Below, one piece after another: positions 2,279-62,241 of a stretch of 64,000 nucleotides of DNA; position 1 is the first letter of the stretch; the number at the start of each line of letters is the position of its first letter. Origin of the DNA: Escherichia phage nithesis; sequence record PV252060.1. One strand, given 5' to 3'. The notes under the pieces are model-generated. The model had not been told where the DNA came from and searched no databases. It was given only the letters and a program-made list of their open reading frames with translations. Made by a program: the position numbers and the translations under genes.

Positions 2279-2989
2279 ATGCAAAAATTATCGGAAGTAT
2301 ATCGTGGCTTGGCATTAAGTACCTTGAAGGGTACTGGTGCAGTCACCGATGACAGATTAGGCATTGAACCAGATAGTAAGCCAGAGATATTGGCTGCTAT
2401 TAATGAAGGGTTAGTTCGACTGCATAGTCGTTTCCCCCTTAGAACTAATAGCTGCATTGTGGAGATGAAGGAAGGTCGTACTGATTATCCCCTCCAATCT
2501 CGGTATGCTTACTCCAGATTTACTAAGCCTACTCTTGAGATTCAATATCCATACATCATGGATGGGTTCATGAAACCTTTCCAGGATGATGTTATTAAAA
2601 TCTTAAATGTGTTTGATAACTCAGGGAATCGCCGTAGACTTAACGACGATTCAGATCCCCATGCAATTTTCACCCCACGGCCTGATACTATTCAGTGTAT
2701 GCGACCTCGACACTTCGAGGCACTTAACGTAACTTATCAAGCTAAGCACCCAATACTTACGGGTGATGAAGAACAGGAAGTTGACTTAGCAGATACACTA
2801 ATGACAGCACTTCATAACTGGGTGGGTTATCGTTACCACACTGGTTTGAATACTCCGGAAGCTAATGCTAAGGCAGCAGAGTATCTGCAAACGTATGAAA
2901 GCATCTGTGGTGAGGTTGTTGATTACGACCTGGCTAATGGAAGTATTTCAATTACCGAAACTAAATTTGAACAACGAGGATGGCGATGA
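2279..2989 (+). CDS. virion structural protein, function unknown
   Basis: 236-aa ORF between terminase and tail fibre genes; 10-nt overlap with the next gene suggests translational coupling. Confidence 0.4.
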   Translation: MQKLSEVYRGLALSTLKGTGAVTDDRLGIEPDSKPEILAAINEGLVRLHSRFPLRTNSCIVEMKEGRTDYPLQSRYAYSRFTKPTLEIQYPYIMDGFMKPFQDDVIKILNVFDNSGNRRRLNDDSDPHAIFTPRPDTIQCMRPRHFEALNVTYQAKHPILTGDEEQEVDLADTLMTALHNWVGYRYHTGLNTPEANAKAAEYLQTYESICGEVVDYDLANGSISITETKFEQRGWR

Positions 2990-5900
2990 ACGCACATACC
3001 CCCTTTGATGCAAAACAGGATTGGACCAATCCATACTGCCAGAACAGTTCCAATGACCCAATGGTAGATGCACTACTTGGTAATGCTTACCATGTGGTTC
3101 GAACTGTGTACTGCAATCTTGGTAACCTCAAACTTCTGTATGATTTCCTGAACCAGTATGGAATGGTACTTGGTGTACAGTCTGAGGCAGAACTTAAGGC
3201 TCTAACCACTGAAGCTAAGTATGCCCGTATCTACGGTTTCTCCCGTGCAGGTGACCGTCAGATAACTGACTACCTTTATGTGGAAGGTGACCGTACCGGT
3301 ATCATTCCAGATGACCCAAAGGCAACTGGTTCATGGATTACCGTTGCTACTTCTGGTTCCAATGATAGTGGTACTTCCTCCGGTGAAGGTGCTTATATTC
3401 CATGGGTATATGCAAACGGTTCTGCTACTGGTGGTGAAACTACAATCAACGTACCAGATGGTACGGTGGGTGTACCTTTTATTATTGTTAATGGCGACAT
3501 GCAGTATGTAGGTCGTGGTTTTGAGTTTAATATTGACAGCCTGTCTGTAACTCTGGCTCAACCTCTGGAAGAGGGTGATGAAGTAGTATTCCTGCTGACT
3601 GGGGTTCCTGCTGTGCCAGATAACCCTAACGTTAGTGATTGGGTTCAGATCAACTGGTTATATAACAATGGTGCTGCTGTAGGTGGCGAGCAGGTTATTG
3701 CTATTCCTTATACCTTCCAGTCTGTTCCTGCTGTGTATAAGAATGGGCTTCGTTTATATAAAGGATTAACCACTGAGTCTTATACTGCTGACCCCGATAA
3801 CCAACGTATACTTCTTACTGAGTCACTGGCAACCGATGACCGGTTGATTGTACAGCTTGGTGGCGAGTCATGGGTATTTGAAGCATCAGACAGTACACTT
3901 CAAGAAGTGGCTCGTGCAGCTAACGTAAAAGACTCTGAAGTAATCCTTAGTACGGACACCACTCAGGTACTTAATGGTAAGAAGGTAATTTATGATGTAG
4001 TTTCCCAACGTATATACTGGTTACCTACCCTACCTACCAATGTTTATATCATCTCTGTCTCAGACGGACAGCTAACATATTCTCCTGGAAATATTACTGT
4101 TACTCTGCTGGATTCCTACCAGCAGCAGAATGCCAGAGAACTATGGCGACGTAACCTTGCTGAGGCCGGTTTAACTCTTGTCGATGGTAGCTTTGAAGAA
4201 GGTGTCACGGCGAACAGTGCAACTGATGCTGTTTGGCATATCGCTGGTGGGCAGTGTTACACGTGGGGTGGCGAATTTCCTAAAACTGTAGTACCTGGCT
4301 CAACTCCAGCAACAACTGGTGGGATTAGTGATGATGCATGGTTAAGTGTTGGTGATGTAAGTTTAAGAAGTGACCTGGCTGATGATGACGGAGTTGATTT
4401 AGTTAACGGAGCAGTCAAGGATAAAGATTTTGAGCTTTACAAAAGGCAATCAATTGCAAAAAATAGATTTAATTTCGCTTTTGGGAATAAATACTCAAGA
4501 AGCTTTAATAATAATTTGCGCTTACAGTTGCAAACTTATGTAGAGAATGTATTTAACTTTGCACCAAAAGCGGTGTCACTTCCGAGTGGGCGGGTGGTAT
4601 GTATCTACACAGTGAAGGATGGTGCTAATATTGACCCAGGACAGGACGGCACACCTATGCACATTGATTACCTAATATCTGATGATAACGGTGTGAACTG
4701 GACCACTGGAACTGTTGTTAACAAAGGACCAGGATATGCCACTTCTGAAACGGTACTATTCCTAAATAATCTTGATGGATATTTGTATTGTTTCTTTACA
4801 TCAATGAAGGGGATTACTGGGTGGGGACATGCACAACAAGGAACTAACCCTGACACAACATCAACTATTGAATATGTCATATCAAAAGATGGTGGCAATA
4901 CATGGAGCACCCCTGTTGATATTACGCCATTGGTTAAACCATCTGGTGCTTACTTCTCATCAATTGCACCTACACAAGTCGGGTACATAAATGGCAAGCC
5001 TGCAATTCCTTATTATTATTTAACTCAACTATCTACAGGAATAGTTGAGGGGTATATCACAGTTGATGATAGCGGTAACTACACCTACGGTGAAGATGTC
5101 AGGAAAGACACCGATGTCGATACGCTAGGAACTTCTGGCGGCGAGATTGGATTTGGCAATTTCTATGATGGAACACCTTTTGCAATTGAGCGTGCTGCCG
5201 ACACAACAATCAAACCGTATAAAATCGCAATACAAAAGCTATTAATGCAAGATTCTAGTGGAAAGTGGGTTGTAAAAGGACAGTTCCCTACCACTAACTG
5301 TATGGCGTCGTTCTTACGCGTTGGCCCTGATTATGGTTTTGATAAGGATTATCTCTTTGTTATCGCACCTGTTGGTCAATCAGGTAATTATGAAGGACGT
5401 GCAAACATTAGAGTATTCGACTGCTCTGACGATTTTAGCAATCCTATTGATCGCGGCATGATAACAGACACAAATGCTTTGGAGGCAGGTTACAGTTCAA
5501 CCGTGCTTCTATCTTCTGGTTCATTTATGAGTATGTGGAACGGTAGACAGTGGACGATTAGCAATTCAATTTACACTATTAACAGGCTTGCGGGCAACGC
5601 AATTATCCCTGTCCCGTTTTGTGGCACTATTAAAATTGTTGACATTAGAAAGACTTTTGCACCCGATTTAAGAACCAACGAGCGAGTGATTGGTCTTGCT
5701 GACGGCAAAGAATATACATGGAACGGTTCATCATTTGTGCTTGGTATTTCGTCACCAACGAAAACGCTAACAACTGAAACAACTACATTAGATGCCAACT
5801 CTTGCGACGTATTTTATCTCGACGCTGGAAGTAATGGGTCAGTGATAACGTCAATCACTGGTGGATATATCGGACAAAGGATATCAATACTTCCGTTATC

Positions 5901-6072
5901 CGGCAGCACTGTTGTGACGCTTTCAAGACAAGCGTCCGGCGTCTCTGTCACCGACAGAATTATGTATAATACAGAAACCGGGAAGACAAAATACAACACA
6001 AACGGGGAGATTGTAGAGTTAATAAAAACGAACTACGGATGGTATTTAAACAAATCAGCAAATGCATCATAA
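2980..6072 (+). CDS. tail fibre/tailspike with BNR/Asp-box (sialidase-like) C-terminal domain
   Basis: 1030 aa; two Asp-box motifs S-x-D-x-G-x-T/N-W (ISDDNGVNWTTG near nt 4675-4710; ISKDGGNTWSTP near nt 4880-4915); Gly/Ser/Thr-rich N-terminal half typical of fibres; hairpin terminator follows. Confidence 0.6.
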   Translation: MAMNAHTPFDAKQDWTNPYCQNSSNDPMVDALLGNAYHVVRTVYCNLGNLKLLYDFLNQYGMVLGVQSEAELKALTTEAKYARIYGFSRAGDRQITDYLYVEGDRTGIIPDDPKATGSWITVATSGSNDSGTSSGEGAYIPWVYANGSATGGETTINVPDGTVGVPFIIVNGDMQYVGRGFEFNIDSLSVTLAQPLEEGDEVVFLLTGVPAVPDNPNVSDWVQINWLYNNGAAVGGEQVIAIPYTFQSVPAVYKNGLRLYKGLTTESYTADPDNQRILLTESLATDDRLIVQLGGESWVFEASDSTLQEVARAANVKDSEVILSTDTTQVLNGKKVIYDVVSQRIYWLPTLPTNVYIISVSDGQLTYSPGNITVTLLDSYQQQNARELWRRNLAEAGLTLVDGSFEEGVTANSATDAVWHIAGGQCYTWGGEFPKTVVPGSTPATTGGISDDAWLSVGDVSLRSDLADDDGVDLVNGAVKDKDFELYKRQSIAKNRFNFAFGNKYSRSFNNNLRLQLQTYVENVFNFAPKAVSLPSGRVVCIYTVKDGANIDPGQDGTPMHIDYLISDDNGVNWTTGTVVNKGPGYATSETVLFLNNLDGYLYCFFTSMKGITGWGHAQQGTNPDTTSTIEYVISKDGGNTWSTPVDITPLVKPSGAYFSSIAPTQVGYINGKPAIPYYYLTQLSTGIVEGYITVDDSGNYTYGEDVRKDTDVDTLGTSGGEIGFGNFYDGTPFAIERAADTTIKPYKIAIQKLLMQDSSGKWVVKGQFPTTNCMASFLRVGPDYGFDKDYLFVIAPVGQSGNYEGRANIRVFDCSDDFSNPIDRGMITDTNALEAGYSSTVLLSSGSFMSMWNGRQWTISNSIYTINRLAGNAIIPVPFCGTIKIVDIRKTFAPDLRTNERVIGLADGKEYTWNGSSFVLGISSPTKTLTTETTTLDANSCDVFYLDAGSNGSVITSITGGYIGQRISILPLSGSTVVTLSRQASGVSVTDRIMYNTETGKTKYNTNGEIVELIKTNYGWYLNKSANAS

Positions 6073-6077
6073 CAACA

Positions 6078-6100
6078 AACCCCGCTTAGGCGGGGTTTTC
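6078..6100 (+). terminator. intrinsic terminator after tailspike 1
   Basis: CCCCGC-TTAG-GCGGGG hairpin followed by TTTTC. Confidence 0.6.
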
Positions 6101-6121
6101 TAGAAAAACAATGAGGTTTAC

Positions 6122-8419
6122 ATGAACGAATTATTCTCTCAAGGTGGTAAAGGCTCTACTGGTATTCTTACCAATAAACAAGCCATTGCCCGTAAGTTTG
6201 GTGTTAAACAGAATGAAGTGGTCTACTTTGCTGTAGGTGTAGACTTAGGTGGTTACAAAGTTATTTACGATAAGACTACCCAGCGTGCTTACTCATTACC
6301 CGCACTCCCAACAGGAACTACTGCTGTAAGCCTCAATGAACATGCAATCCTGATTCATTCAGCAGGTACAGTTGATTTGGGGGAACTGGCTGCTACACGT
6401 AGAGAGTTCGTGGTCCTGTCTGACACGTTTGCTACTGGTTTGGTAGTGAATACACGAAATGAATTATTATTTCATAATGGAGTAGGTTATACCTACTTAG
6501 GTACTCTACCTGTAACAATTACCACAGGAACTAATCCTGTAGGTAACACAGATTGGAAACCACAGACTGACCTTAATTTACGGGAAGAATTAGCGGCTGA
6601 CTTCGGTTATCAGCTAGTTCCGTCTGTGGAAAAGCAACGATGGCTTTACGCCGGGGACGTGCGTGCTTTTGGGGTTGTTGGTGATGGGTCTGATGAGGCA
6701 TCTAGTTTGCAGTTAGCCATTAACTCGGGTAATGTTTTTGTTCCCCCGGGCATGACGGTTTCTCATTCACAAGTCAACATACCAAAAGGTACGATTTTTA
6801 CTTTCGGTCATGGTGCTGGGTTGACATCATTGACTGCTAATGCTCTTAATTTCGTCAGCGAGAGCCAATTCAGCTTGCTTTCCCCTGCAGCTTCTGGAGC
6901 AACGTCCATCACATTAACATCTGAGGTGACAGGAACTGGGTATACCCGGGCTTTGGTAATACGCACTGAGGACACAAGTGACGCTTGGTATATCGCCAAC
7001 GCACAGAATCCGGATGTAATCGGATACCAAGGTGAATCTTTTTTAATATCGTCCATATCAGGTGCTACTGTAAATTTAGCAACGGCTTTACCGTGGGACC
7101 TAACTACCACCAATTCGATTATTTATCTTATAAAAGGCAACGCTACTAAGTTCATCGGGGGAATCTTAAAAAATGCTGCGTCAGGGTCTAGCTACATGTA
7201 CCAATCCGTGGGGGCTTCACTTATAGAGTTCCATGGTACTGCTTTTGATTATAATGGAAACGGCGGTTCAAGGCATGATAACGCGTACGGTGTGGTTTAC
7301 CACAACACTACCCATACCGGGCGTGTCGGAAATGGTAATATATTTTTTGGTTATGGATCTACAGATTGTACTGTCACGGGTACGACCCACATTGGAGGGA
7401 CCGGTGGGGATGCGCAAATAATATCTTACGCTGGCTGCCGTAACATCCGTACATCCCTTAACATCCTAAAACCTACAGCTAACAACGGGGGTATATATTT
7501 TGGTGCAAAAAGCTTCGACTGCAACACCCATGCTGATTATATTAAAGGCGGAAAGTATGGGGTTATGGGGGCATTTGGTGCTCAGCGTATTGTTGTGGAC
7601 TCGCTGGCGGCAGACGACCAAGTATCAGGCGCTATCTTTATGGAGCAATGCCAGAACTTTACCATCACAAACCCGTCTATTAGATTCGTAAGGACTGGCG
7701 CTCAAACAACCGCTGCGATATTAATTAAGGACTGCGATTATGTGACAGTGGATGCAAATGTCCCTGTAAATACAGGGGCGAACGGGTATATAGTCAGTAT
7801 GTATAGCGCTCCTGCATACGCCCTAACAGTTAGAAAAAATATAAACATTACGGTAAAAGGTACTGGCAGTGTATACCTTACTAGCCCTATGACCAATTTC
7901 TCGATTAAAGACTGTTTAACATCCGGCGGTATGACAGTTTACTACGCCAATGGTACGTCTACTTACGGCAAGGTTACGCGTAATAGTTGCCGGTTTTTAG
8001 TAGCTCAAAGTTTCCAATATTGTGACATAGATAGTAACACCATTGTGGGGGATTCTGATTCTGAGGGTATACGCCTTGGTGGTAACTGTAGATGGAACAA
8101 CGTATATAGAAACAAGGTTAGTGGGGTTACTACGGCATTCTTCGTTAACTCAGCACCCGCAAATCTATACACGAATGCGTTTCATGATGATAACGTAATA
8201 GATTACTCAACAGTAACCACCTTCGTATCATCTCAGACTGGAACCACCACACCAGTTACTGGAGTGTTAAACCCCGCTCCAGTGAGGAATTTCTTTCTCC
8301 CGGCAACAGGTTGGCAGGATAGCCCTACGGTAAAAAGAACTGTTAGTGGCTGGAGGCATAAAGGCACTACAACAGGCACAGCGTCTGATTGGTTTACTAT
8401 CCCCTCGTCAGAAGCGTGA
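6122..8419 (+). CDS. second tailspike / tail fibre, probable beta-helix depolymerase-type protein
   Basis: 765 aa; long Gly/Thr/Asn/Ser-rich repetitive sequence consistent with a beta-helix tailspike; located in the tail module; followed by a hairpin. Confidence 0.5.
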   Translation: MNELFSQGGKGSTGILTNKQAIARKFGVKQNEVVYFAVGVDLGGYKVIYDKTTQRAYSLPALPTGTTAVSLNEHAILIHSAGTVDLGELAATRREFVVLSDTFATGLVVNTRNELLFHNGVGYTYLGTLPVTITTGTNPVGNTDWKPQTDLNLREELAADFGYQLVPSVEKQRWLYAGDVRAFGVVGDGSDEASSLQLAINSGNVFVPPGMTVSHSQVNIPKGTIFTFGHGAGLTSLTANALNFVSESQFSLLSPAASGATSITLTSEVTGTGYTRALVIRTEDTSDAWYIANAQNPDVIGYQGESFLISSISGATVNLATALPWDLTTTNSIIYLIKGNATKFIGGILKNAASGSSYMYQSVGASLIEFHGTAFDYNGNGGSRHDNAYGVVYHNTTHTGRVGNGNIFFGYGSTDCTVTGTTHIGGTGGDAQIISYAGCRNIRTSLNILKPTANNGGIYFGAKSFDCNTHADYIKGGKYGVMGAFGAQRIVVDSLAADDQVSGAIFMEQCQNFTITNPSIRFVRTGAQTTAAILIKDCDYVTVDANVPVNTGANGYIVSMYSAPAYALTVRKNINITVKGTGSVYLTSPMTNFSIKDCLTSGGMTVYYANGTSTYGKVTRNSCRFLVAQSFQYCDIDSNTIVGDSDSEGIRLGGNCRWNNVYRNKVSGVTTAFFVNSAPANLYTNAFHDDNVIDYSTVTTFVSSQTGTTTPVTGVLNPAPVRNFFLPATGWQDSPTVKRTVSGWRHKGTTTGTASDWFTIPSSEA

Positions 8420-8436
8420 CTTATAGCTGTAAAACT

Positions 8437-8460
8437 AAGGCCCCAAATGGGGCCTTTTCT
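8437..8460. terminator. bidirectional hairpin terminator between convergent genes
   Basis: AAGGCCCC-AAAT-GGGGCCTT perfect hairpin with T-rich flank, between + gene ending 8419 and - gene ending 8460. Confidence 0.6.
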
Positions 8461-9113
8461 TATATAGAATTTACTGTTTGCATTACCCTAACCGATACTG
8501 CTGTTAAGGTTATTACTTGTCCTGATATATTAAACATACCCAACTGAATACCATCTACCATGAAAGGGTCAGATGAACCAAGTGTGTAAGTAGCTAGTAC
8601 GTTATCCCTATTAGCTATGTCCGTACCCTGTACCTTAACACTAGCATCTGAACCTACTACCGTAGTTCCATTGGTTCGTCTTGTTTGTGTTCTCCATTCT
8701 CTTGCTGTACCAGCACCTCCTGCAATAGTTCCTGAGATACGAACACTGAACATTACCTGGGTATTCCTGGTTCTAGCAGGGAACTTAAGATTACCCCCTT
8801 CAATCGTTAGTGCTGCTGTACCTCCTGGTGATTTAGTTATTCCTGGTAATGAAAAGTAATTGAACCAGGTCTGGTCATTTACTGCTTGGTTACCAGTCCA
8901 TGTATACAAGTCCAGAAGGAAAGTATCTTCTAACTCTGTTGGTGGGATGGGTAGTAGTTCAGGGGGAAGCTCTGAAACGTTATTAGCAGAAACTATTCGT
9001 TCCCCATAGCTTCCCACGACCAACAAACCACCCTTCATTTTGCACACAACATCCTTACCACTTTGGAAAATATCTTTAATAGACATAGTTACCTCGTAGT
9101 TGATACCAGACAC
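8460..9113 (-). CDS. hypothetical protein on opposite strand inside the late module
   Basis: 217-aa ORF in a gap with no + strand ORF; GAGGT Shine-Dalgarno 6 nt upstream of the ATG; Gly/Thr-rich, possibly tail-associated. Confidence 0.45.
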   Translation of the reverse strand: MSGINYEVTMSIKDIFQSGKDVVCKMKGGLLVVGSYGERIVSANNVSELPPELLPIPPTELEDTFLLDLYTWTGNQAVNDQTWFNYFSLPGITKSPGGTAALTIEGGNLKFPARTRNTQVMFSVRISGTIAGGAGTAREWRTQTRRTNGTTVVGSDASVKVQGTDIANRDNVLATYTLGSSDPFMVDGIQLGMFNISGQVITLTAVSVRVMQTVNSI

Positions 9114-9210
9114 TATGTCTGGATGTACTTCATCATACTAAGTATTATCTAAGAGTCATCTTATGATACGACCCTATTGGGGTTCCTAACTTCACAACTA
9201 CGGTAATATT
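9114..9210. promoter_or_regulatory. divergent intergenic region (putative promoters for 8460-9113 and the lysis cassette)
   Basis: 97-nt AT-rich gap between divergently oriented genes; no promoter consensus verified. Confidence 0.25.
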
Positions 9211-9540
9211 ATGAATGAATCGGGTGAACTGCTTCTAGTCAGACTGGAGGAACGATTGAAGACTCTGTTTGAGAACCAGACAAGGGACAGGCAGGACCGT
9301 GAGAAACTGGAGGAAACTCTGGTAGAACTACGGGATTCAATCAATGACATAGGCAATAGACTAAAGAATGTGGAGGATAGCTTAGCTAAGAATGAACCTA
9401 CTATTGAAGAGTTCATCACCATTAAGCATAAAGTTGTTGGTGCTGGAATCTTCGGTAAGTGGGTGTGGGCTGGGGCAGGTGCAATTATTGGTGTATTGGC
9501 TGCTGCAAGACGGGAGATATTCGCATGGTTCGCAGGTTAA
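9211..9540 (+). CDS. putative holin/antiholin-like protein (coiled-coil plus C-terminal transmembrane segment)
   Basis: 109 aa; charged coiled-coil-like N-terminus, hydrophobic Gly/Ala-rich C-terminal segment IFGKWVWAGAGAIIGVLAAA; directly upstream of endolysin. Confidence 0.35.
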   Translation: MNESGELLLVRLEERLKTLFENQTRDRQDREKLEETLVELRDSINDIGNRLKNVEDSLAKNEPTIEEFITIKHKVVGAGIFGKWVWAGAGAIIGVLAAARREIFAWFAG

Positions 9541-9785
9541 AAAGAAAGGTAGAGTTAGTACCTAACTGGAAAAGATGTTGGAAGTGGGCATCCATTCAGA
9601 TTAGTACATTTGGTTTAATTCTGTTCTCTGCTGTAGATATTATCCAACCAATGCTGACTGGGTTACCCCGTCACATCCTGGAAGATATTCCCCATGGTTC
9701 CAATATTGCAATTGCACTGTTTGCCTTAAACATCATAGGCAGATTGATACGATTCCGTCCAAAGGAAGATTCACATGAAAGCTAA
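9525..9785 (+). CDS. putative holin (two predicted transmembrane helices)
   Basis: Start moved to internal ATG at 9525 overlapping the upstream stop; basic N-terminus then two hydrophobic stretches; overlaps endolysin start. Confidence 0.4.
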   Translation: MVRRLKRKVELVPNWKRCWKWASIQISTFGLILFSAVDIIQPMLTGLPRHILEDIPHGSNIAIALFALNIIGRLIRFRPKEDSHES

Positions 9786-10410
9786 ACAAAAACTTGCTGC
9801 GAAAGGTGGTGCAGTGGGAGGAGTTGTCGCTGCTATCCTGGGGGCAGTGTTCTATATGGAAGGGGGATATGTAAACAATCCTCGTGACCCAGGTGGGGAA
9901 ACTAATCATGGTATTACCCATGCAGTAGCTAAGTCTCACAAAGAAATTCTGGCCACTGAATACGGTTGGGATGGTTCTATGAAAGGTTTATCTAAAGAGA
10001 TGGCTGCTGAGATATATATTGATGACTACGTACTTAAGCCTAACTTCGTATCCTTCGCTGATATATCTCCTGCTGTAACACATAAGCTGGTAGATGCTGG
10101 TGTTAACACTGGTGTAACCCGTCCTGCTAAGTGGTTGCAGTTATCTCTTAATGAAATGTCCCGTAATGGCAAAGACTACCCTAAAATACAGGTTGATGGT
10201 AAAGTCGGTACAAGTACTGTTAATGCATATAAAGCATTACAGAAAAAACGAGGCAAAGTTGCAGCATGTCAGGTAATGATTAAGTTACTTGATGCCAAAC
10301 AACTGAACCACTACACCTCATTAAACATGCCAGACTTTACGTATGGTTGGGTAGCTAACCGAATAGGCAATGTGCCACTGGAGGCATGTAATGAAGATGC
10401 TAATCTCTAA
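9775..10410 (+). CDS. endolysin, GH108-type N-acetylmuramidase with peptidoglycan-binding domain; possible SAR N-terminus
   Basis: EGGYVNNPRDPGGETNHGIT matches the GH108 catalytic motif; N-terminal weakly hydrophobic Gly/Ala-rich stretch GGAVGGVVAAILGAVFY resembles a signal-arrest-release segment. Confidence 0.75.
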   Translation: MKAKQKLAAKGGAVGGVVAAILGAVFYMEGGYVNNPRDPGGETNHGITHAVAKSHKEILATEYGWDGSMKGLSKEMAAEIYIDDYVLKPNFVSFADISPAVTHKLVDAGVNTGVTRPAKWLQLSLNEMSRNGKDYPKIQVDGKVGTSTVNAYKALQKKRGKVAACQVMIKLLDAKQLNHYTSLNMPDFTYGWVANRIGNVPLEACNEDANL

Positions 10411-10897
10411 AGGTTGGCCTTATCTTCTGGTGGTGGTCCTAGGGACCACCATTTACTTTTGGGGCAATTCCAATGGGCAGTCTACTGTTCAAAAGAAGTG
10501 GGATGACCAAAAGGTTGAATATCAGAAGGCAATGCAAAAATTACAGGACAAATATAATGCTCTCCAAAGAAACCATAGTTATGAAGTCGGGTTACTCACT
10601 TCCCGGTTGCAGACGGCTGAGAGTAATTACGCAAGCGAGCTTGCTCGCGTTAGCAGTGATTACGACAGCCGGATGCAACAGTCTGAAAGACGAGCATCGG
10701 TATATAAACGTCAAGCCGAAGCCGGAACCTTTGAGTGCAGAAGTCTTGCAAGCCATGCAGCCAGACTCGACAACAGTCTTGAAGAAGGCAGACGTTTGGT
10801 TGAAGAACTCAGGGCAACTGTTAGACTCCGTGACAGCCAACTAATTGAGTTGGGTAAACAGATTCAGGCTGACCGTAAACTTTTTGAACAGGAATAA
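10391..10897 (+). CDS. i-spanin (Rz-like)
   Basis: N-terminal transmembrane helix ([16 protein letters not shown]) then charged coiled-coil-like periplasmic domain; directly after endolysin; start moved to internal Met. Confidence 0.55.
10581..10844 (+). CDS. o-spanin (Rz1-like lipoprotein) embedded in the i-spanin gene in another frame
   Basis: Embedded ORF with basic n-region, hydrophobic region ending in a T-A-G-C lipobox-like motif, and a proline-rich mature part (KPKPEPL). Confidence 0.5.
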   Translation: MKSGYSLPGCRRLRVITQASLLALAVITTAGCNSLKDEHRYINVKPKPEPLSAEVLQAMQPDSTTVLKKADVWLKNSGQLLDSVTAN

Positions 10898-61117: not shown

Positions 61118-61951
61118 TTATTCTGCAACAGTAACAGGGATGGTTACATCGACAGTACCGTTGGTAACTACTACAGAAGTAGCATCACCAGCAGCTACTG
61201 GTTTAACTGTCAGGACATTGCCAGAAATGGTAGCTGTAGCACGTCCAGATTCTGGAGCAGTCTTGATAGACAAAGTACCGGAAGAGGAACCAACAGGCAT
61301 AGCAACAATTGTTACAGTCTTGCCAGCAACAGTATCGGCAGCAACAGACAGAGCCAGTGAATCAGGAGTAGCTACCAGAGAGCTTGCTTCGTAGTAGCCT
61401 ACAGCCAGCAGTGACTCATCTTCTACAGTGGTTACATTAGCATCTGTAACAATCACTTTATAAGTACCAGCAGAAGCAGCTGTTACGTCATTAAGGGTCA
61501 ATGTTGCAGTAGCAGCAGATGGGTTAGTACTGGAACTAATATCAGCGAATGCTGCACCAGCAGTATTTGCTTTGAATTGCCATTTATAAGTAAATGGTGC
61601 TTTACCACCTGCTACATCAACATGCCAGTTAATATCTTCACCTTCAATAGTGGAGACTACACGAGGCAGTTTGGTAGCAATGGTCAGTCGTGGAGTAGCT
61701 TTCATATCAATAGAGATAGACTGCATATCCACGATGTTGTTAGGCCAGAAGCCTTCTTCAGCAGGGTTTTTAGCAGAGCGTTTATATAGCAGATCACGAA
61801 CACTATGAAAGATAACTAAGCTATCTGGGTAAGTGGCATCTGGGTGTACAAAAGTACCTACTTCTACGGAACCACCTGGGATAGAACCACTGGCATCCAG
61901 TACAGTTGCAACATTAGTGGTTTTGTTAAAACCTACTTTCAAAGTTGGCAT
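61118..61951 (-). CDS. Ig-like (Big-type) domain protein
   Basis: About 278 aa from internal ATG with GAGGAA Shine-Dalgarno; Thr/Val/Ala-rich beta-strand-like repeats (TYKVIVTDANVTTVED, TVTIVAMPVGSSSGTLSI) typical of bacterial Ig-like domains. Confidence 0.4.
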   Translation of the reverse strand: MPTLKVGFNKTTNVATVLDASGSIPGGSVEVGTFVHPDATYPDSLVIFHSVRDLLYKRSAKNPAEEGFWPNNIVDMQSISIDMKATPRLTIATKLPRVVSTIEGEDINWHVDVAGGKAPFTYKWQFKANTAGAAFADISSSTNPSAATATLTLNDVTAASAGTYKVIVTDANVTTVEDESLLAVGYYEASSLVATPDSLALSVAADTVAGKTVTIVAMPVGSSSGTLSIKTAPESGRATATISGNVLTVKPVAAGDATSVVVTNGTVDVTIPVTVAE

Positions 61952-62025
61952 ATCAATTTCCTCATAAGTAAATAGCAGGATTAGTATACATGACATGTAA
62001 AAAAATAAACCCTCCGTTAAGAGGG

Positions 62026-62241
62026 TTAGTTGTTTACACAGTAGATAGCAAAAGCTATCCATCCTGCCATTACAAAGCAGCCAAGTGAGTATGCTCCATA
62101 GTAGCAGTAAGCAAACTTAGACTTGTGGGCATGAACTATTGTAGACAGAACCAGTACAGATAAAACTATCAGTATTAGCTGAAAGATTACTTCAAAAGGG
62201 ATTAGCATAGTTTTTACCTCCAAGCAAAAAATAGGCCTCAC
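62026..62241 (-). CDS. small membrane protein
   Basis: 71 aa, two hydrophobic segments; start likely internal. Confidence 0.3.
   Translation of the reverse strand: MRPIFCLEVKTMLIPFEVIFQLILIVLSVLVLSTIVHAHKSKFAYCYYGAYSLGCFVMAGWIAFAIYCVNN

Follow-up and report, generated by a model that had tools for sequence, protein, structure and literature searches.

The late region of Escherichia phage nithesis (sequence record PV252060.1), analysed here as a stretch of 64,000 nucleotides (the window), raises the question of why a single gene, at 8460-9086, is read from the minus strand, and what its product might do. Judged by the megablast matches of positions 8300-9350, which were Gamaleyavirus genomes (Bp4, PD38, pSb-1, the UE phages, ECBP1 and others; 91-95% identity), the window is a Gamaleyavirus, an N4-like coliphage of the G7C/Bp4-like Schitoviridae (Enquatrovirinae). 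In the 33.5-kb late block (1-33536), all the non-overlapping or free-standing open reading frames (ORFs) of at least 100 aa were on the plus strand except that at 8460-9113, the other minus-strand ORFs of at least 100 aa being shadows within plus-strand genes; in Bp4, the closest annotated relative, orf14 was likewise the sole minus-strand coding sequence among the annotated late genes orf8-orf25. An earlier reading of the letters alone (the original prediction) had described the only minus-strand gene in 33 kb of plus-strand late genes of an N4-like phage, and both parts of that description were confirmed.

The 208-aa product was established, from sequence comparison and a structural model, as a two-module fibre-type protein consisting of a short predicted anchor and a TNF-like knob, and adds an uncharacterised example to a well-known class of phage proteins. 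We give about an even chance to the proposal, drawn from the sequence, the model and the analogy with characterised relatives, that it serves the virion as an optional fibre or adhesin, trimeric and tipped with the knob, which a decoration-protein-type anchor probably attaches to the capsid.

The gene, its start codon and its coding potential

The mechanically called ORF (8460..9113, minus strand) has a GTG start and 217 codons. This frame exists as originally predicted, but its start did not hold: the first residues of the homologues are MSIKD or MSLKD, and a GAGGT motif is located 4 nt before the ATG at 9086, so the true start is that ATG and the product has 208 aa instead of 217. The coding sequence of the knob gene (8460..9086, minus strand; codons 9086-8463, ATG 9086-9084, stop TAA 8462-8460) corresponds to orf14 of Bp4 and to PHROG 17779 ("unknown function"), which was matched end to end (E 2e-116). 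The gene does have its own Shine-Dalgarno sequence, as had been claimed, although the GAGGT read at 9095-9091 (minus strand, 4 nt 5' of the ATG) serves the ATG at 9086 and not the GTG at 9113.

Comparison with the orthologues indicated that 8460-9086 is a real gene under purifying selection, with dN/dS values of 0.17 against Bp4 (21 synonymous and 12 non-synonymous differences) and 0.10 against UE-S5b (36 and 14, respectively). A set of 5.8 billion proteins yielded 41 homologues down to 57% identity, and full-length homologues were found across genera at 54-67% identity, those from other Schitoviridae genera at about 54%. The GC content of the gene (0.413, against 0.433 for the window) and its codon usage, expressed as a value like the codon adaptation index, were within the range of the neighbouring genes. 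A recent foreign acquisition was rejected on this native composition, and on the 67%-identical allele that occupies the same slot elsewhere.

A TNF-like knob at the C-terminus

An AlphaFold2 monomer model was built from 26 homologues (mean predicted local distance difference test score, pLDDT, of 79; predicted template modelling score, pTM, of 0.67). Residues 1-35 were modelled as a helix, a beta-hairpin and a second helix (pLDDT 60-72), within an N-terminal module (aa 1-45; 8952..9086, minus strand) that is the putative virion or capsid anchor. A flexible Pro-rich linker follows (aa 46-54; 8925..8951, minus strand; within ELPPELLPIPPTELED), with pLDDT below 50 at residues 46-51 and with a length and sequence that vary among the homologues. 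The remainder (aa 55-208; 8463..8924, minus strand) is a predicted TNF/C1q-like beta-jelly-roll knob, a beta-sandwich with a core pLDDT of 80-96 in which the ten strands of the TNF-like fold were present, and whose invariant residues include R129-E-W, Q134-T-R-R, N159-R-D and D173-P-F.

The best fold match of the knob was the tail-needle knob of phage Sf6, and structure-based annotation independently names the gene "tail needle knob" in UE-S5b and UE-M3. A hidden Markov model (HMM) search of 1.84 billion representative proteins gave 171 proteins with the knob domain. Among the 150 HMM matches listed, of 60-900 aa, the end of the domain was nearly always separated from the C-terminus by no more than a few residues, and in the distant relatives it was preceded by collagen repeats, phage-fibre repeats or a GDSL esterase. 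This extreme C-terminal placement across lengths, after such partners, is the signature of a fibre-tip module, and the collagen repeats of the relatives indirectly imply that the knob forms trimers. Relatives sharing the knob only were gp18.8 of Kayfunavirus CLB_P1, encoded between Rz/Rz1 and the terminase, as well as proteins from 44-46-kb Klebsiella podoviruses, Aeromonas Chaseviridae (with a collagen stalk) and Salmonella phages 65FD and 66FD.

The known proteins of this fold differ from the window protein in what lies beneath the knob. The tail-needle knob of Sf6 gp9 (3rwn) and the vertex-spike knob of PRD1 P5 (1yq5/1yq8) are TNF-like and trimeric, with 5-13% sequence identity to the window protein, but they are attached through a gp26-like coiled-coil needle and a penton-associated N-domain, respectively, both unrelated to the window anchor, and unlike them the window protein has as its stalk only the Pro-rich linker of about 10 residues. 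Bacillus BclA and the "collagen-like domain-containing protein" of Aeromonas phage ZPAH14 carry C1q/TNF-like knobs on collagen stalks, whereas collagen repeats are absent from the window protein and its N-terminal anchor differs. The TNF-like lectins Photorhabdus PLTL and Burkholderia BC2L-C (N-domain) share the fold of the window knob (Foldseek E 1e-5 to 1e-4), which supports a carbohydrate-binding role for such trimers; they are, however, soluble bacterial proteins, not phage-borne and with no sequence similarity to the knob, and the likeness considered here is that of the fold.

Several records (NCBI/nr and GenBank; homologues P0020 and P0032; TR2, S5, CLB_P1 and Gekk3-15) label the homologues as "protease", which was rejected as no protease family or fold was detected. 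This name seems to have spread from a note of similarity to a "predicted protease" in CLB_P1.

The N-terminal module is shared with a capsid decoration protein

In a phmmer search of the PDB, the sole suggestive match of the window protein was 9d82_J, "B2 Dec Gp45" (residues 6-44 against 9-48, E 0.0035), and a profile comparison with this protein, gp45 of Shigella phage B2 (Ithacavirus; PDB 9d82), confirmed the homology of the first ~45 residues (hhalign, residues 1-44, probability 97%, E 7e-11). In B2, gp45 (99 aa, "head fiber protein") is directly followed by gp46 (211 aa), a full-length homologue of the window protein with 53.6% identity; the first 45 residues of gp45 and gp46 show 49% identity, and the two proteins have nothing in common thereafter. 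An independent pair was found in an Ithacavirus-like contig (L013), where a 120-aa head-fibre-like protein, made of the module, an Ala/Thr-rich linker and a C-terminal helix, is followed by a 212-aa knob protein that also starts with the module, and the same head-fibre/knob gene pairing was present in Triduovirus TR2.

Cryo-electron microscopy has shown that B2 gp45 decorates the T=9 capsid as a homotrimer, and it was detected in the virion by mass spectrometry (PMC11654681). Unlike the window protein, gp45 ends not in a knob but in a phi29 p8.5-type head-fibre motif (PF11133, its last 35 residues, E 3e-10), which a Pfam search did not find in the window protein or in B2 gp46. Since PF11133 is widespread, occurring in phages as different as myoviruses and Bacillus phages, among others, the portion of gp45 that is specific to the lineage is the N-terminal module. 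The N-terminal part of phi29 p8.5, in turn, resembles capsid-bound minor capsid proteins (PMC11476376).

The major capsid proteins of the window phage and B2 are 58% identical, so their shells are homologous. Phages usually mount alternative appendages at one site through a common N-terminal adaptor with differing distal domains, and by this analogy the module would dock the knob protein on the virion, the capsid being the most probable site.

Distribution, loss and orientation of the knob gene

The knob gene was intact in about 9-10 of the approximately 23 distinct database gamaleyaviruses (~40%), with intact copies detected by tblastn in Bp4, pSb-1, PD38, Uz-1 and UE-S5a/S5b/M3/M6; in the rest it was truncated, frameshifted or deleted. 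It was frameshifted into two pieces in VTCCBPA_322; only the last 33-36 codons (the 3' stub) were left in ECBP1, EC1-UPM, PD205, PE007 and ZQ2; and only about 25 nt around the stop codon remained in the G7C-like St11Ph5 (L007 3870-4124). In the megablast comparison, PGN829.1, U1G, PBM-2/3, HK2, PW8 and ShWW44 matched on the gp63 side only. The segment missing from ECBP1 and ZQ2 (535 bp, 8563..9097) had identical breakpoints in the alignment; its deletion removes the Shine-Dalgarno sequence, the start codon and about 175 codons, and leaves the final ~33 codons and the terminator in place, with the upstream region entire. These two phages are natural isogenic-like knockouts of the gene. Divergent alleles were found in Jgk1 (64% identity) and in a metagenomic gamaleyavirus contig (204 aa, 67% identity, in exactly the same slot and orientation), and metagenomes also held shortened proteins of 125-157 aa.

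The repeated deletion and truncation among relatives indicates that the gene is dispensable and has been lost repeatedly. It is an accessory and variably present gene, and forms a self-contained unit. The variability among N4-like relatives expected by the original prediction was therefore observed, down to presence or absence among close gamaleyaviruses, and the refuting case, the same gene with a known structural role in every relative, was not encountered. Of the idea of a moron or accessory gene, the accessory and variable part stood and the recent acquisition did not, given the native GC content and codon usage and a slot kept across genera. With classical morons such as lambda bor and lom, located downstream of lysis or tail genes, the knob gene shares a terminator, a location at a module boundary, variable presence and perhaps, if the promoter-like site is used, independent transcription; it differs from them in belonging to a lytic phage, in its native composition, in a slot conserved across genera and in a product built like a structural protein.

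In Ithacavirus and Triduovirus, the homologues have an equivalent location, with the lysis cassette on one side and, on the other, the tail-fibre genes with which they converge, as illustrated by B2 gp46. The genes for the holins, endolysin, spanin and head fibre of B2, TR2 and L013 are grouped with the knob gene in a single block, opposite in strand to the structural genes, so that the knob gene of B2 is co-oriented with the lysis genes, whereas in the window these genes face the other way and the knob gene is alone on its strand. It looks "lone" because in the window only the knob gene retains the orientation of the Ithacavirus/Triduovirus lysis block. The gamaleyavirus lysis cassette is inverted relative to that of Ithacavirus and Triduovirus (B2, L005 4687-7982, against window 8460-10897).

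Proposed function and alternative explanations

In the proposed mechanism, the C-terminal TNF/C1q-like jelly-roll domain would trimerise, as in the Sf6 tail-needle knob, PRD1 P5, BclA, C1q and the TNF-like lectins, while the three N-terminal 45-residue modules, like those of B2 gp45, would dock the trimer on the virion, most likely on the surface of the T=9 capsid, with the Pro-rich linker keeping the knob off the shell. The knob would then provide an auxiliary, non-essential binding to a conserved surface ligand, probably a glycan or an anionic one, helping reversible adsorption or retention, and the primary host range would be set by the two upstream tailspikes. We infer that the protein trimerises, attaches to the virion or capsid and binds a ligand, and also when it is expressed. 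Among the functions suggested originally, a host-range or adhesion factor is the best fit to a TNF-like knob on a short anchor, with adhesion itself only probable.

Several observations weigh against a capsid-borne fibre. The presence of the knob protein in virions is a prediction, and the B2 virion mass-spectrometry table has gp45 and not gp46, although this table is short and omits expected ejection proteins (PMC11654681), and the particle proteomics of the UE phages, with 44-56 proteins of which many are non-structural, was too permissive to help. The N-terminal module was modelled with only moderate confidence (the pLDDT of 60-72 mentioned above), neither a gp45-like paralogue nor a second copy of either module was found in the window, and the 208-aa protein had no Pfam match even at E <= 10, including to any knob, C1q or TNF family. 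Conservation is highest in the knob and lowest in the anchor and linker, contrary to what typical receptor-binding proteins show, and the gene is oriented like the early and middle genes, so that its expression may not be late. In addition, the window encodes a Hoc-like, N4 gp17-type capsid decoration protein with Ig domains (61118-62062, minus strand; PHROG 2973, E 3e-98) among the early and middle genes, and the Hoc-like protein of Moo19 and gp45 of B2 have been reported at "the same quasi-sixfold" sites (PMC11654681), so that the knob protein and the Hoc-like gp17 might compete for one site. Should the knob protein be bound to the capsid, this phage would have two different putative appendages there.

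The supplement of the B2 paper mentions neither gp45 nor gp46, nothing was found on the knob gene in the literature on Bp4, Gamaleyavirus and G7C, and a profile search with the N-terminal anchor in the 5.8-billion-protein set recovered five fragments only, the module being too short for a database of that size.

Among the alternatives, the one that survives best, although unlikely, is that of a non-virion, moron-like protein, a soluble TNF-like lectin or trimer acting inside or outside the infected cell, for instance by masking receptors on debris at lysis, by superinfection exclusion or by modulating a host or defence component. Such a role would suit a dispensable, self-contained unit with promoter-like and terminator elements that shares the orientation of the early and middle genes, whose homologue was not reported in B2 virions, and which lies beside lysis cassettes in four unrelated groups (the window; B2, TR2 and L013; Kayfunavirus CLB_P1 gp18.8; Chaseviridae ZPAH14). 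It is at odds with the native composition of the gene, with its position within the late block, converging on the tailspike genes, with an N-terminal module common to a structural capsid protein, and with a knob family that is overwhelmingly the C-terminal tip of fibre-like proteins. Moreover, the 208-aa sequence contained no signal peptide, transmembrane segment or lipobox, and had no NCBIfam match and no PADLOC family at E <= 1, in addition to the lack of Pfam matches, which also speaks against the exclusion or anti-defence protein of the original prediction.

Quite unlikely, in our judgement, is a tail-attached accessory receptor-binding protein, with the N-terminal module seated on the tube tip, the adaptor or the tailspike complex, and the knob acting as a secondary adhesin or needle-knob analogue. 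The match to the Sf6 tail-needle knob, the "tail needle knob" label in UE-S5b and UE-M3, the adjacency of two tailspike genes and the occurrence of knob relatives on tail-fibre-like proteins with fibre repeats or an esterase would all agree with it; yet B2 gp45, the sole characterised carrier of the module, is on the capsid and not on the tail, the tail reconstructions and mass spectrometry of B2 and Moo19 report no such component, and the N-terminus is unlike the Tail_spike_N and gp63.1 docking domains of the neighbouring spikes.

A role in the assembly (as a chaperone) or maturation of the upstream tailspike is very improbable. The gene is directly 3' of a tailspike gene, as tail-fibre assembly genes usually are with respect to fibre genes, and some records carry the "protease" label discussed above; but the same gene, 93-96% identical, was found behind three unrelated tailspikes (that of the window, Bp4 orf13 and the UE "K5 lyase"), ECBP1 and ZQ2 have related spikes and lack the gene, agtreviruses with a 93-95%-identical spike have only a dead fragment of it, and no chaperone or protease family or fold was detected. 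The fibre chaperone of the original prediction thus fails. Finally, a non-functional chance or decaying ORF, whose conserved parts would serve the terminator and the downstream promoter, might accommodate the repeated losses and a terminator and upstream intergenic region conserved beyond the presence of the gene itself, but is effectively refuted by the dN/dS values and substitution counts given above, by the full-length homologues at 54-67% identity across genera and by the confidently predicted fold.

If the capsid-borne knob fibre is taken further, N4-like phages might possess modular capsid appendages on one interchangeable anchor of about 45 residues, one version being the short phi29-type head fibre (gp45) and the other the lectin-like TNF knob (the window gene and gp46). 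On the T=9 shell of gamaleyaviruses, the knob and the Hoc-like gp17 would be either companions or competitors, and some strains would gain an optional adhesion, mediated by the capsid, to a conserved surface ligand of enterobacteria. Drawn by analogy, this extended proposal is tentative, and taken jointly with the coexistence of knob and Hoc-like protein and with capsid adhesion it appears rather unlikely. A more speculative variant is that the trimer, freed at lysis, masks receptors on cell debris. Separately, the 3' end of the knob gene may, with its terminator, function as the conserved homology arm on the right-hand side when tailspike cassettes are exchanged between Schitoviridae and Ackermannviridae.

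If present on the virion, the knob protein would provide the first description of a TNF-knob head fibre from Schitoviridae, and the single clean 535-bp deletion that separates Bp4-type from ECBP1-type phages would represent a natural presence/absence polymorphism, offering a ready test of optional capsid adhesins in adsorption, in mucus or biofilm retention and in the pharmacology of phage therapy. The database labels "protease", "tail needle knob" and "hypothetical" are corrected by these results. The 3' stub marks, and probably mediates, the exchange of tailspike cassettes between two families, which bears on host-range prediction and engineering.

A footprint of the knob gene in Agtrevirus tailspike cassettes

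The best DNA matches of the tailspike allele at 6122-8419 were not in the database gamaleyaviruses but in the Agtrevirus myoviruses (Ackermannviridae) A221, PC3, PH4 and RPN242. The matching block (93-95% identity) extends from about 6074-6101 in the window, just upstream of the spike start, to 8735, about 275 nt inside the knob gene (window 6074-8735; PC3, L002 2874-5435). The segment that survives beyond the spike (8420..8735), with the terminator and about 90 codons from the end of the knob gene, is a decayed pseudogene in PC3, PH4, A221, RPN242, SKML-39 and LHE287, located downstream of the spike gene on the opposite strand and unannotated. Its frame is interrupted in PC3 by a 1-nt deletion and in SKML-39 (L003 4001-4295) by two, of 11 nt and 1 nt, and the stubs of these two phages have one common upstream breakpoint. 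SKML-39 and LHE287 carry different spike alleles, and the stub is still present.

Such a dead remnant of a gamaleyavirus gene next to the spike argues for a transfer of the cassette across families, from Gamaleyavirus to Agtrevirus. It suggests, too, that the stub and the conserved N-terminus of the spike now act as homology arms for cassette exchange. The window tailspike has 765 aa and that of PC3 741 aa (window 6122-8419, L002 2895-5120), the PC3 spike being without a segment of about 24 residues after the conserved N-terminal domains, around ...PQTDLNLREELAADFGYQLVPSVEKQRWLYAGDVRAFG...; by the alignment, this difference is an indel at the junction of the docking domains and the catalytic body.

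Terminator, intergenic region and expression signals

A G+C-rich hairpin terminator (AAGGCCCC-AAAT-GGGGCCTT; 8437..8456, both strands) is common to the converging tailspike gene (plus strand) and the knob gene (minus strand). Its G+C-rich stem has 8-9 bp and is followed, on the plus strand, by TTTTCTTATATA, a strong T-tail, while the minus-strand T-tail, AGTTTTAC, is weaker; the folding energies were -18.6 kcal/mol (z -3.4) on the plus strand and -17.0 kcal/mol (z -3.2) on the minus strand. The stem sequence varies among relatives and self-complementarity is kept in each of them. The bidirectional terminator predicted earlier is therefore real on the plus strand, and its bidirectional action, with the weaker minus-strand T-tail, is no more than plausible.

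At the other end, the divergent intergenic region that had been recognised was confirmed, and with the corrected start it spans 9087-9210, up to the gp63-like gene. Within it, a sigma-70-like promoter candidate, ATGACT-16-TATGAT, was located on the minus strand (9159..9132; -35 at 9159-9154 and -10 at 9137-9132). With 9 of 12 consensus matches it was the sole such site in 8000-9700, although shuffled sequences gave a mean of 3.4, so that statistically it is not compelling alone, and the region is also conserved in phages without the knob gene. Of the elements that would insulate the unit, the terminator is convincing and the promoter is a candidate by consensus match. Back to back with the minus-strand site is a plus-strand -10-like hexamer, TATGAT (9162..9167), in a segment invariant in five gamaleyaviruses, which may be the promoter of the gp63/holin/endolysin/spanin/portal operon.

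The stretch 9100-9210 was nearly invariant in gamaleyaviruses with or without the knob gene, exceeding the flanking coding DNA in conservation. Given this invariance where the gene is absent, much of the conservation must serve the plus-strand gp63/lysis/portal operon, and it is no proof of a dedicated knob-gene promoter; the comparison suggests that 9100-9210 is probably the late promoter and leader of that operon. The stretch also contains GACCCTATTGGGGT at 9170-9183. A small hairpin of the intergenic region was retained in a divergent lineage (L012), and the lineage with the 204-aa allele had a different intergenic sequence. Searches of the flanks against Rfam returned sub-threshold noise only.

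A perfect hairpin with a 7-bp stem and a 3-nt loop, CCAGACA-CTA-TGTCTGG (9106..9122), lies about 17 nt upstream of the Shine-Dalgarno sequence and is invariant even in relatives without the gene. In the minimum free energy structure of the minus-sense leader (-16.3 kcal/mol, z -2.9), however, the 5' arm and loop of this hairpin are used in another pairing, a 9-nt perfect complement between AGACAUAGU (9120-9112) and ACUAUGUCU (9089-9081), which occludes the AUG and part of the Shine-Dalgarno sequence and is one base weaker in Bp4. As modelled, this pairing may be a translational damper or switch, fitting low-level translation.

Because the knob gene is co-oriented with the early genes and has a hairpin of these dimensions upstream, an early promoter of the virion RNA polymerase (vRNAP) was considered. 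N4 vRNAP promoters have a 5-7 bp stem and a 3-nt loop, with a purine at -11 and a G at -8 on the template strand. The hairpin at 9106-9122 was rejected in this role, as it has a CTA loop and is without the GC-GGA-GC core of the candidate early hairpins of Bp4 (ACATGC-GGA-GCATGT, AAGACGC-GGA-GCGTCTT and AGCTGC-GGA-GCAGCT), a core also present in N4 P2. These candidates were found in Bp4 1-2800 and 63500-72583, with centres at 318, 67858, 72013 and 72490, outside the window. ACATGC-GGA-GCATGT occurs twice in Bp4 with identical 50-nt flanks, possibly a terminal repeat.

Neighbouring genes

The N4 equivalents of the neighbouring genes were taken from the Bp4 annotation. Upstream, on the plus strand, are a gp66-like branched tailspike (2980-6072; Tail_spike_N, BNR) and the gp63.1-like tailspike of 765 aa (6122-8419), which converges on the knob gene. 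On the other side, an N4 gp63-like protein with a coiled coil and a transmembrane segment (9211-9540, plus strand) heads the lysis cassette, followed on the same strand by the holin, a GH108 endolysin and Rz/Rz1, and then by the portal from 10900. Two family labels obtained for the 9211-9540 product look spurious, with the coiled coil as the trigger; a lysis-regulatory or membrane role seems more likely, as this gene overlaps the holin ORF and is at the head of the lysis cassette.

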